Assembly: GCF_003019035.1 (NCBI RefSeq)
Contig: NZ_CP027447.1
Length of the DNA: 64,000 bases
Source of the DNA: Escherichia coli
GTDB taxonomy: Bacteria > Pseudomonadota > Gammaproteobacteria > Enterobacterales > Enterobacteriaceae
Strand: one strand, 5' to 3'
A program made the position numbers and the translations under genes. Below, one piece after another: positions 334 to 56,150 of this stretch. The notes under the pieces are model-generated. The model worked only from the letters and a program-made list of their open reading frames with translations, did no database searches and was not told the DNA's origin. How positions within the stretch are numbered: the first letter of the stretch is position 1; each line of letters starts with the position of its first letter.

Positions 334-1094
334 GCGAGTTCTACCGCAGGGGCGGGGAATTCTAAGTGATATCCATCATCGCATCCAGTGCGCCCGGTTT
401 ATCCCCGCTGGCGCGGGGAACACTTGCAGTAGCACTTCAGTTCTGTTTTTGTCACCGGTTTATCCCCGCTGGCGCGGGGAACACGCCTGATAGCGCCTCC
501 AGCCTTCGCCCTGGTGCGGTTTATCCCCGCTGGCGCGGGGAACACTGCATAGCTTTGGCTTCTTCTTTAACGGACGCCGGTTTATCCCCGCTGGCGCGGG
601 GAACACAGTACCACTGTTTTTTCTTCGGTGCCCAGCCACGGTTTATCCCCGCTGGCGCGGGGAACACGTTTACATATTTATACCTACACGCTCAATCGAC
701 GGTTTATCCCCGCTGGCGCGGGGAACACCCGTTTTCGATTGAACAGAAAGATTTCAACACCGGTTTATCCCCGCTGGCGCGGGGAACACAATACAGACCC
801 GTTGTACGGTTTTTGCGAGCACGGTTTATCCCCGCTGGCGCGGGGAACACTTGGAAATCACCTCCCCGATCTCCGCGCTGTCCGGTTTATCCCCGCTGGC
901 GCGGGGAACACCCCTCGGCAAAAATGCCTTTTTCCTCGTCGGTCGGTTTATCCCCGCTGGCGCGGGGAACACCACGGGCCAGACGGTAGCAACAATTTTA
1001 CGGCCGGTTTATCCCCGCTGGCGCGGGGAACACCAAAACGGAAGTGCCAGTATTGCCAGAATCACCGGTTTATCCCCGCTGGCGCGGGGAACAC
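334..1094 (-). CRISPR. Type I-E CRISPR array: 13 repeats of 29 nt (terminal one degenerate), 12 spacers of 32 nt
   Basis: Exact repeat CGGTTTATCCCCGCTGGCGCGGGGAACAC starts at 395, 456, 517, 578, 639, 700, 761, 822, 883, 944, 1005 and 1066 (61-nt period). A degenerate copy at 334-362 keeps the CCGC..GGCGGGGAA core. Leader and cas2 lie on the high-coordinate side, so crRNA sense is the minus strand. Confidence 0.97.
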
Positions 1095-1190
1095 ACTAAG
1101 CATACGTATCTGTTTTTAAACAATTTTATTCCACATCAACAATCTACCAACTAAATTCAAACATTTCCTTATTTTTAAAGAACGGGTAAC
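1095..1190 (-). promoter_or_regulatory. CRISPR leader (AT-rich) between first repeat and cas2
   Basis: AT-rich 96 nt between the newest repeat and the cas2 stop; contains AACAATCTACCAAC at 1138-1151, also found in the second array's leader. Confidence 0.6.
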
Positions 1191-2400
<1,210 letters not shown>

Positions 2401-26194: not shown

Positions 26195-26343
26195 ATGGTT
26201 ATCCCCGCTGACGCGGGGAACATAAGTTCGACAACTTAAAAAATGATAACAAGTCCGGTTTATCCCCGCTGATGCAGGGAACATAATAAAAACTTTAACT
26301 AGTTCGGTTTATCCCTGTTTTTACAAGGAATATTAACTACACT
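26195..26343 (-). CRISPR. Decayed orphan CRISPR remnant: 3 degenerate I-E repeats, 2 spacers
   Basis: Repeat-like units at 26195-26223, 26256-26284 (CGGTTTATCCCCGCTGATGCAGGGAACAT) and 26315-26343 (CGGTTTATCCCTGTTTTTACAAGGAATAT); spacers 32 and 30 nt. Confidence 0.7.
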
Positions 26344-26786
26344 CGATGTCTTTAGAATAAAAGACAATACGAATCGCACTTTATCAATTTTCACTTAAAG
26401 TATGAACTGGATATCTTTATTCATAAGAACTATTCATCAACAGCCTATAGAGGCGGTTATGTAAAACCACTCATTAGCCTCAAAACAAAGACAAATTTCC
26501 AGATTTATTACTTAATCAATGAATAACAAGCTTAAAAAATACACTGTTATTCTAAAGAAAAAATTAACAGGCATTAATTAATATTAAAAAAATAATAGAT
26601 TAAAATTTCTTAACGGTTTAAGGATTATACAAATAACACTTTGATTAAATTTGATTTTTTGTATCGATAATTGTGAACTTATCTGGCATGGAGAACTATT
26701 TTGAACATGAGGTGTTATGTGGATATGTTGCTTATTACAAGTACAGCTAATATAAAAACTTGAGAAAGAGATAACGGGTTATATGG

Positions 26787-27059
26787 TGGTTTATCCCCGC
26801 TGGTGCGGGGAACTCTTGGCATAGGCGCTATAGCGGCGCTCTGTGTCCGGTTTATCCCCGCTGGCACGGGGAACTCGTTGGTGCCGTTGTTGTAACCGTA
26901 GAAACCGACGGTTTATCCCCGCTGACGTGGGGAACTCGCAGGTCAACACGGGCGATAAACCCGGCTGACCGGTTTATCCCCGCTGACGTGGGGAACTCGA
27001 TAAGCAGATTGCAGAACTACAGGCGAAGGACGGTTTATCCCCGCTGACGTGGGGAACTC
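26787..27059 (-). CRISPR. Orphan type I-E CRISPR array: 5 repeats, 4 spacers
   Basis: 29-nt repeats at 26787, 26848, 26909, 26970 and 27031 (61-nt period), consensus CGGTTTATCCCCGCTGRCRYGGGGAACTC; ends in ...AACTC rather than the ...AACAC of the cas-proximal array. Confidence 0.95.
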
Positions 27060-27200
27060 TCTAAACATAACCTATTATTAATTAATGATTTTTTAAGCCA
27101 GTCACAATCTACCAACTTTACAGGATCACACAAACAACACATCCATTATGTTAAAGAACACTTAATCCATTGATTAAAAAAGTAAATATTTAAAATAACT
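27060..27200 (-). promoter_or_regulatory. Leader of the second CRISPR array
   Basis: AT-rich; CTAAACATA... start and CACAATCTACCAAC at 27104-27117 parallel the first leader at the same distance from repeat 1. Confidence 0.55.
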
Positions 27201-27397
27201 CTATACCCACTAAAATCTACCAAACTTTACCGCAATAATTTTCACTCCAACGAAAAATTAACGCCACAGAATTTGTAGAGAATGATAATGATTAGCCCAG
27301 AATGGGCAAAATGGAGTTTTTTCAGAGGCGACAAAGAATATAAATAAGTGGAAGTCTTTACAGGTTCCACCCATTTATAACGCTTATAAATGTTTAA

Positions 27398-28069
27398 TCA
27401 GGCAATATTCAAATATTTATGTGTCTGCATCGACAAACGCCAGTTGCGCGCTATGCAGGTATCGATACATAAACGCGTAGCATCTTCCTTCTGGCTAATT
27501 GGCTGAAGTGCAATGACTCGCGGTTTATCATCGGTCAGCGTCGCAAGCAATTCATCCAGTGCTTCGATATCACGTACGCGTCCCACTGGATGCTTGATTT
27601 CGTTGGCTCGCTCCAGTGCCTGTGACAACACTTCATAGCCGCCGCGCATATTCAGCTTTGGCGATACGGTAACCCAGGTATTCGGTGTGCAGCGTACTTC
27701 ATGAGTACCACTGGTTTCGATCTGGCAGCTAAAACCGTTCTTTTCGAGCTGGTCAGTCAGTGGCAGCAAATCATGAATGCAAGGCTCACCACCCGTAATC
27801 ACCACATGCCGTGCGGTGTATCCCTGGCGACCAATGACAGCCAGCAAATCTTCACTGCTCGCAGCCCCCCACTTATCACTCTCTTTGGTCTTCGCCAGAA
27901 TGCTGAAAAGGGAAACTTCCCGATCCTCAAGCTTTTCCCAGGTGTGTTTGGTGTCGCACCAGGCACAGCCAACCGGGCATCCCTGTAAACGAATAAAAAT
28001 GGCGGGGACGCCGGTAAAGTAACCCTCACCTTGCAGGGTCTGGAACATCTCGTTAATCGGGTACTGCAT
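27398..28069 (-). CDS. queE: 7-carboxy-7-deazaguanine synthase (radical SAM)
   Basis: 223-aa ORF MQYPINEMFQTLQGEGYFTGVPAIFIRLQGCPVGCAWCDTKHTW (CxxxCxxC radical-SAM motif variant typical of QueE). Confidence 0.95.
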   Translation of the reverse strand: MQYPINEMFQTLQGEGYFTGVPAIFIRLQGCPVGCAWCDTKHTWEKLEDREVSLFSILAKTKESDKWGAASSEDLLAVIGRQGYTARHVVITGGEPCIHDLLPLTDQLEKNGFSCQIETSGTHEVRCTPNTWVTVSPKLNMRGGYEVLSQALERANEIKHPVGRVRDIEALDELLATLTDDKPRVIALQPISQKEDATRLCIDTCIARNWRLSMQTHKYLNIA

Positions 28070-54782: not shown

Positions 54783-56150
54783 ATGATTAGCGTATTCGAT
54801 ATTTTCAAAATCGGCATTGGCCCTTCCAGTTCTCATACCGTTGGACCAATGAAAGCGGGTAAACAATTTACCGACGATCTGATTGCCCGTAACCTGCTTA
54901 AAGACGTGACCCGCGTGGTGGTTGACGTGTACGGCTCGCTCTCTCTGACTGGTAAAGGCCACCACACTGATATCGCCATTATTATGGGCCTGGCGGGTAA
55001 CCTGCCGGATACCGTGGATATCGATTCCATCCCTGGTTTTATTCAGGATGTGAATACTCATGGTCGCCTGATGCTGGCAAATGGTCAGCATGAAGTGGAG
55101 TTCCCGGTTGATCAGTGCATGAACTTCCATGCCGACAACCTTTCTCTGCATGAAAACGGTATGCGCATTACCGCACTGGCGGGCGATAAAGTCGTTTACA
55201 GCCAGACTTACTACTCTATTGGCGGTGGCTTTATCGTTGATGAAGAGCATTTTGGTCAGCAGGATAGCGCACCGGTTGAAGTTCCTTATCCGTACAGTTC
55301 AGCAGCCGATCTGCAAAAACATTGTCAGGAAACCGGGCTGTCACTCTCTGGCCTGATGATGAAAAACGAGCTGGCGCTGCACAGCAAAGAAGAGCTGGAA
55401 CAGCACCTGGCGAACGTCTGGGAAGTCATGCGTGGCGGTATTGAGCGCGGTATTTCTACCGAAGGCGTGTTACCTGGCAAACTGCGCGTTCCACGCCGTG
55501 CTGCGGCACTACGCCGGATGCTGGTCAGCCAGGATAAAACCACCACTGACCCGATGGCGGTTGTTGACTGGATCAACATGTTTGCACTGGCAGTGAACGA
55601 AGAGAACGCTGCTGGCGGTCGCGTGGTGACTGCGCCGACTAACGGTGCGTGCGGGATTATCCCGGCTGTGCTGGCGTACTACGATAAGTTTATCCGCGAA
55701 GTGAACGCTAACTCACTGGCTCGTTACCTGCTGGTAGCCAGCGCCATTGGTTCTCTTTATAAGATGAACGCGTCGATTTCTGGTGCCGAAGTGGGTTGCC
55801 AGGGTGAAGTCGGCGTGGCGTGCTCAATGGCGGCGGCTGGTCTGGCAGAACTGCTAGGCGCAAGCCCGGCGCAGGTATGCATCGCGGCGGAAATCGCCAT
55901 GGAACACAACCTCGGTCTGACGTGTGACCCGGTTGCCGGACAGGTCCAGGTACCGTGCATCGAGCGTAACGCCATTGCGGCAGTAAAAGCGGTGAATGCT
56001 GCACGTATGGCGCTGCGCCGTACCAGCGAGCCGCGCGTCTGCCTCGATAAAGTTATCGAAACTATGTACGAAACAGGTAAAGATATGAACGCCAAGTACC
56101 GCGAAACCTCTCGCGGCGGCCTGGCAATGAAGATCGTTGCCTGCAATTAA
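54783..56150 (+). CDS. sdaB: L-serine dehydratase 2
   Basis: 455-aa ORF MISVFDIFKIGIGPSSSHTVGPMKAG... (Fe-S L-serine dehydratase). Confidence 0.97.
   Translation: MISVFDIFKIGIGPSSSHTVGPMKAGKQFTDDLIARNLLKDVTRVVVDVYGSLSLTGKGHHTDIAIIMGLAGNLPDTVDIDSIPGFIQDVNTHGRLMLANGQHEVEFPVDQCMNFHADNLSLHENGMRITALAGDKVVYSQTYYSIGGGFIVDEEHFGQQDSAPVEVPYPYSSAADLQKHCQETGLSLSGLMMKNELALHSKEELEQHLANVWEVMRGGIERGISTEGVLPGKLRVPRRAAALRRMLVSQDKTTTDPMAVVDWINMFALAVNEENAAGGRVVTAPTNGACGIIPAVLAYYDKFIREVNANSLARYLLVASAIGSLYKMNASISGAEVGCQGEVGVACSMAAAGLAELLGASPAQVCIAAEIAMEHNLGLTCDPVAGQVQVPCIERNAIAAVKAVNAARMALRRTSEPRVCLDKVIETMYETGKDMNAKYRETSRGGLAMKIVACN

Follow-up and report, generated by a model that had tools for sequence, protein, structure and literature searches.

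A fixed-position motif in both CRISPR leaders of an Escherichia coli type I-E locus very probably represents the upstream Cas1-Cas2 recognition element

When the two CRISPR leaders of one genome carry the same short motif at the same distance from the first repeat, the question arises which protein reads it, IHF or the Cas1-Cas2 integrase. We addressed this question in a stretch of 64,000 nucleotides from the E. coli contig NZ_CP027447.1 (the window), which is 100% identical to strain SCU-301 and whose leaders are 90-95% identical in most other E. coli. Window positions 1-28,000 correspond to the iap-CRISPR-cas-queE region of E. coli; they include a cas operon of type I-E and the usual pair of arrays, CRISPR-I by cas2 and CRISPR-II by queE, both on the minus strand. 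The CRISPR-I array (395-1094, 12 repeats) has its repeat 1, the integration target, at 1066..1094; leader 1 occupies 1095-1190 (96 nt) and is followed by cas2 (1191-1484, stop codon at 1191-1193), cas1 and the rest of the type I-E operon. The CRISPR-II array (26787-27059, 5 repeats) has its repeat 1 at 27031..27059, and leader 2 (338 nt) extends from the array to the queE stop at 27398. Because both arrays read on the minus strand, leader positions are counted from the repeat, position -n being 1094+n in leader 1 and 27059+n in leader 2; cas2, the repeats and the leader elements located here all lie on that strand. The motif is thus set among 29-nt I-E repeats and I-E cas genes, Cas1e included, as in type I-E systems. 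Compared with K-12, the cas operon of the window is the other E. coli I-E variant, and its Cas1 is 84% identical to K-12 Cas1; a sequence search of solved structures matched this Cas1 to the E. coli Cas1-Cas2 and Cas1-Cas2-IHF-DNA structures, including 5WFE. No known RNA family was found in either leader.

A sequence-only reading of this DNA had placed the motif AACAATCTACCAAC at 1138-1151, where it indeed lies, reading GTTGGTAGATTGTT in the leader-to-repeat direction (-57 to -44) with a GGTAG core at 1144-1148 (-54 to -50). The second motif that it reported at 27104-27117 is present one base away: CACAATCTACCAAC occupies 27103-27116, reads GTTGGTAGATTGTG towards the repeat (again -57 to -44) and has its GGTAG core at 27109-27113. 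As the two first repeats end at 1094 and 27059, exactly 43 nt separate repeat 1 from the motif in both leaders; the claim of an equal distance therefore stands, and the 44 and 45 nt given for it result from a counting slip. The similar leader starts are real, with CTAAGCATA at 1096-1104 and CTAAACATA at 27061-27069. The longest block identical between the leaders is the 14-mer ACAATCTACCAACT, at 1139-1152 and 27104-27117 (-45 to -58). When the leaders were anchored at the junction and compared without gaps, 13-14 of 14 positions were identical inside the motif and 39% outside it (P ~0.004 over all window positions), so the shared block stands out.

Three matches to the 14-mer with at most two mismatches occur in the window, compared with an expectation of 0.43, and in 100 shuffles this count was never attained. 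With a matrix built from the leaders of other species, the three best of 128,000 window positions were 1138-1152 (20.6 bits), 27103-27117 (17.6 bits) and 27211-27225 (16.6 bits), all on the leader strand, while shuffled sequence gave 0.1 sites per window at 16.6 bits or above. The last of these corresponds to the third partial copy that had been described at about 27211-27224, which is real and reads AAAATCTACCAAAC at 27212-27225, one base further on. A match to the 14-mer with two mismatches (AACAATTTACCGAC, 54862-54875) lies distant from the arrays, scores 12.9 bits like other scattered hits and is most likely due to chance.

The motif has a direct counterpart in K-12 MG1655, where AACAACCCACCAAC lies at -44 to -57 of the CRISPR-I leader and a sequence identical to CACAATCTACCAAC lies in the CRISPR-II leader; the window motif shares 11 of 14 bases with the former and matches the latter exactly. 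In their scan of the K-12-type leader by 12-bp blocks, Yoganand et al. (NAR 2017) found the blocks at -34 to -45 and -58 to -69 dispensable (PMC5224486). Mutation of the block CBS2 (-46 to -57) abolished acquisition in vivo, the supershift with Cas1-2 and IHF, and integration in vitro, and left IHF binding and bending essentially intact; within CBS2 the sole critical part was the GTGG at its centre (-50 to -53), which received the name "integrase anchoring site" (IAS) (PMC5224486). The element of the window is alike in system, species and position, for it belongs to the same I-E system of E. coli and shares with the CBS2/IAS of the K-12/BL21 CRISPR-I (2.1) leader the positions -46 to -57 and a core at -50 to -53; the flanks, with a presumed IHF site at -9 to -35 and TTAGA at the junction, also have the architecture of the K-12 CRISPR-I leader. 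Given that the positions are the same, the 14-mer is CBS2 plus two bases. We conclude that it is very probably the upstream Cas1-Cas2 recognition element of type I-E leaders (CBS2/IAS), an element already characterised for E. coli K-12 and in that sense an ordinary finding. In the Cas1-Cas2-IHF-DNA structures of Wright et al. 2017 (PDB 5WFE), as cited by other papers, the motif is reportedly called the "upstream recognition motif".

The sequence-only reading had proposed a protein-binding element at fixed spacing that positions Cas1-Cas2 integration, and this is borne out by the overlap of the motif with the mapped CBS2 and the IAS within it (PMC5224486). The published demonstrations that acquisition and integration need the motif, independently of IHF binding, concern only its K-12 homologue. 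The one difference within the core is that GTGG was the sequence tested in the K-12 CRISPR-I leader, whereas the window has GTAG, as do the K-12 CRISPR-II leader and most species.

To view the element across species, 80 Cas1e loci were taken from one-genome-per-species contigs, which provided 71 cas2-adjacent leaders and, after dereplication, 57 that were stacked ungapped from the junction. The information content of this stack peaks at -2 to -5, at -18, -17 and -10 (the IHF core), and at -56 to -44 (TTGGTRGATTTTT). GGTRG starts at -54 in 44 of the 57 leaders and at -53 or -55 in 4 more, with conservation of 88% for G-54, 95% for G-53, 88% for T-52 and 82% for G-50. Of these leaders, 32 have A and 20 have G at position -51, which makes the GTAG of the window the commoner natural variant; it is at exactly this position that two Salmonella CRISPR2 leaders differ. 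The core is kept at the same offset as far as Methylophaga, Marinomonas and Shewanella, where the flanks are scrambled. The motif is therefore not only present at an identical position in both leaders of the window but also conserved across species, and its GTAG, though not the tested GTGG, fits the family consensus GGTRG; the variant presumably works like the GTGG of K-12.

Next to the junction the 57 leaders have the consensus TTAGA at -5 to -1, with T-5, A-3 and G-2 conserved at 88-98%. In the window, the corresponding bases are TTAGT in leader 1 (1095..1099) and TTAGA in leader 2 (27060..27064), the leader-side contact of Cas1-Cas2. Further out, the family profile has an IHF-like core at -21 to -9 in the register of the IHF consensus WATCAANNNNTTR, with AAAWCAR at -22 to -16, C-18 in 91%, A-17 in 95%, T-10 in 91%, and A-9, together with an A-tract at -34 to -31. 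This profile is matched by leader 1: its predicted IHF-binding region (1103..1129, -9 to -35, position taken from the literature) contains the core AAACAGATACGTA at -21 to -9, with AAAACAG at -22 to -16, T-10 and A-9, and the A-tract at -34 to -31. In leader 2 the presumed IHF-binding region (27068..27094, -9 to -35) is assigned by position only and has the degenerate core TAATAATAGGTTA; this leader is A/T-rich and offers two IHF candidates with two mismatches each, the alternative being AATCATTAATTAA at -31 to -19, whose AATCAT core lies 10 nt further upstream. Its position -18 (27077) is T, compared with C in 91% of I-E leaders including Salmonella CRISPR2, and since the conserved C-18 is missing the register of the bend in leader 2 is an assumed one.

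These elements can be combined into a mechanism in which IHF would bind the A/T-rich site at about -9 to -35 and turn the leader through a U-turn. With the centre of the bend near -26, the GGTRG at -50 to -54 would fold back beside the leader-repeat junction, where it could contact a Cas1 lobe of the Cas1-Cas2-prespacer complex, and this second contact would be what makes repeat 1, and not the other repeats, take the first strand transfer. The spacing of the conserved elements would fit such a geometry, as a U-turn a few bases upstream of the WATCAA core (at about -26) would by mirror symmetry place -51, where the conserved core sits, opposite the junction. Published accounts of the bend, in which it carries the upstream motif towards Cas1, agree with this. 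In a 2023 review IHF is placed at -9 to -35, the element further upstream that touches Cas1-Cas2 at -50 to -55 and the Cas1-Cas2 site at -1 to -4; later papers describe the solved integration complex likewise, with the IHF bend bringing the elements at -50 to -55 to Cas1-Cas2. On supercoiled plasmids without IHF, the leader was dispensable for a stable complex of Cas1-Cas2, protospacer and DNA (PMC5389526), which argues that the motif is not a strong autonomous binding site and fits a contact that matters only on bent DNA.

Three other readings of the motif were weighed against that of a Cas1 contact. The sequence-only reading had implied that the motif is itself the leader IHF site, and in favour of this I-E integration is IHF-dependent, the leader is A/T-rich and IHF tolerates degenerate sites. 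The mapped IHF site, however, lies at -9 to -35, 8 nt from the motif and without overlap, and the 14-mer has no match to WATCAANNNNTTR; the family profile moreover contains a separate IHF-like block at -22 to -9 with its A-tract, and CBS2 mutants keep both IHF binding and bending (PMC5224486). The comparison with mapped sites that had been proposed as a check thus comes out on one side, with the integration signal overlapped and the IHF site not. Position and published gel-shift results together rule out the IHF-site identity, to which we give hardly any probability: IHF bends the DNA so that the motif reaches Cas1, and does not bind the motif. No more credible is the idea that the block is a residue of common descent, kept without selection. 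It is true that the two leaders are homologous along their whole length, but descent alone would not leave 39% identity outside the block against 13-14 of 14 inside, nor hold the core at one offset across distant genera while the flanks were scrambled.

The third reading takes the motif as a promoter element of the pre-crRNA, either a -35-like TTGGTA or part of the start-site region, rather than an integration signal. A consensus scan of leader 1 does find TTGGTA-16 nt-TAAAAT on the minus strand (1150..1123), a weak match of 9 out of 12, and according to the 2023 review K-12 CRISPR-1 transcription starts "about 50 nt" upstream of repeat 1. No such pair of boxes was found in leader 2, however, despite the same motif, and no conservation of the partner hexamer is seen across species: the supposed -10 box (-34 to -29) is the A-tract, which lacks the conserved T of such a box. 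K-12 CRISPR-2 transcription starts at about -95 although its motif is at -54 (2023 review), and the starts are thus not at homologous positions. The motif keeps a constant distance from the repeat but not from the conserved block upstream of it, where the interval changes by steps of about 11-12 nt, and purified Cas1-2, IHF and DNA reproduce the CBS2 requirement without transcription (PMC5224486). With one weak match in leader 1, none in leader 2 and an unconserved partner box, promoter identity was rejected as an improbable explanation of why the motif is kept; given the K-12 CRISPR-1 start some 50 nt from repeat 1, the same bases may have a secondary, overlapping role in transcription. The Cas1-Cas2 recognition element accordingly remains our reading of the motif.

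The arrays themselves contain traces of leader activity. In array 2, the three leader-proximal repeats (26909-27059) share a private variant, CTGACGTGGGG in place of CTGGCGCGGGG, which introduces a mismatch into the stem and is absent from the older repeats. New repeats are copied from repeat 1, so three proximal repeats with a shared variant would have arisen if repeat 1 mutated and was then copied in two or more later acquisitions; by this inference the motif-bearing leader 2 has been active. The window also contains a degenerate array of three repeats at 26195-26333, which is E. coli CRISPR 2.2 and is present in K-12 too. On its leader side, the expected positions -44 to -57 (26377-26390, CACTTTATCAATTT) have lost the GGTAG core and hold no matrix site; both the CRISPR 2.2 array and its docking site seem to be dead.

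The third copy of the motif led us upstream in the leaders. It occupies 27211..27225 of leader 2 (GTTTGGTAGATTTTA, -166 to -152) with GGTAG at -162 to -158. Leader 2 can be aligned collinearly with leader 1 and the end of cas2 from the junction to exactly this copy (27060-27225 with 1095-1247; 100 of 163 positions identical, 61%, E = 4e-7), and the alignment covers the last 18 codons of cas2. This collinear homology identifies the distal part of the CRISPR-II leader as the decayed remains of a cas2 3' end. In the alignment the third copy stands opposite CCG GTG GAT TTG, the codons for P-V-D-L of Cas2, and the embedded counterpart in cas2 is CCGGTGGATTT at 1237..1247, with GG at -151. A "ghost" leader-repeat junction was considered as an origin of the third copy and discarded, there being no IHF-like site or repeat remnant at the expected downstream offsets.

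Several features of the cas2 codons point to constraint on the embedded core. GGTRGA lies at -151 in both E. coli cas2 variants. Of 42 dereplicated cas2 genes from loci L004-L083, 35 encode the P by CCG, where the rest of cas2 has 33%, and 38 encode the V by GTR, where the rest has 45%. These P and V columns have the lowest third-position entropy of the 28 conserved four-fold codon columns (0.81 and 1.45 bits versus 1.64-1.99), a control drawn from the same cas2 alignment and hence sharing its phylogeny with the tested codons. Read together, the constrained bases give CGGTRGA, which is the docking-motif core; it is found at a fixed -151, or at -139 in leaders about 12 nt shorter. The cas2-embedded copies score 6.5-8.9 bits, lower than the leader motifs because only the core is kept, and a second motif copy at 11 bits or above occurs in a single one of the 57 cas-adjacent leaders (L035, Marinomonas). 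When CRISPR-II leaders were sought through QueE homologues, five of six loci had no array by queE (some with queD directly downstream, others with other genes), and only the Salmonella locus (L089, L090) was informative: its CRISPR2 leaders have the orthologous TTTGGTAAATTT, with one change, in a core G.

Between the distal and the proximal copy lies a perfect IHF consensus, followed by CTTTAA. In leader 1 it is AATCAATAAGTTA at 1187..1199 (-105 to -93), overlapping the cas2 stop, with CTTTAA at 1175-1180; in leader 2 it is AATCAATGGATTA at 27163..27175 (-116 to -104), with CTTTAA at 27151-27156. Across the leaders, 17 have such a consensus at -93 and 6 have it at -103 to -105, the two of the window being at -105 and -116, and CTTTAA is found at -75, -85 or -86, or -97. 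These positions differ by steps of about 11-12 nt and are paired as -93/-75, -105/-86 and -116/-97. Both blocks persist in coding sequence (E-N-Q-stop or D-L-stop) as well as in non-coding sequence. The distal CGGTRGA lies about 85-108 bp upstream of the first core, and the second IHF site follows it by 45-46 bp in those leaders of E. coli and Salmonella that were measured.

Tentatively, and with more doubt than confidence, we consider that the I-E leader is longer than the roughly 60 bp studied and bipartite, with a second docking core, a second IHF site and the CTTTAA block. The second core may reside in the synonymous positions of the cas2 P-V-D codons, and the orphan leaders (E. coli CRISPR-II and Salmonella CRISPR2) may keep a non-coding copy of it in a decayed cas2 3' end. 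The arrangement of these blocks in the DNA suggests a second bend-and-dock module. If it is functional, a further docking site would be offered by the second IHF bend, which could raise, for instance, the efficiency or fidelity of integration. The scanning study states, citing earlier work, that 60 bp of leader is enough under overexpression (PMC5224486), and a distal module would therefore modulate integration rather than be essential to it. The distal blocks may already be covered by earlier work, and no novelty is claimed for them. A later paper cites a survey of leader motifs by Santiago-Frangos et al. 2021 for the presence, in some I-E leaders, of several IHF sites together with upstream motifs.

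Known systems offer parallels to the architecture of the motif. In the type I-F leader of Pseudomonas aeruginosa, the DNA folded by IHF likewise offers upstream motifs to the integrase in a constant helical phase; that leader has two IHF sites and bends over ~150 bp, with different motifs, inverted repeats bound by Cas2, and contacts made through Cas2/3 (bioRxiv 10.1101/2023.05.26.542337). For I-E, by contrast, a single IHF with a single motif near -50 has been reported to be enough. The attP intasome of phage lambda, where IHF bends deliver arm-type Int sites to the core-bound recombinase, is comparable by analogy only, its proteins and sequences being unrelated.

For the biology of the locus, the motif explains how Cas1-Cas2 chooses the first repeat, which keeps the CRISPR memory chronological. 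This was established for E. coli in 2016-2017, and recognising the motif here adds nothing to the mechanism. What it adds is a positional precision to the single base that holds for the two arrays of this divergent E. coli lineage and for many Gammaproteobacteria, the corrected assignment of the motif as a Cas1 contact and not an IHF site, and a lead to a second docking-like core hidden in the codons of cas2 and retained in orphan leaders.
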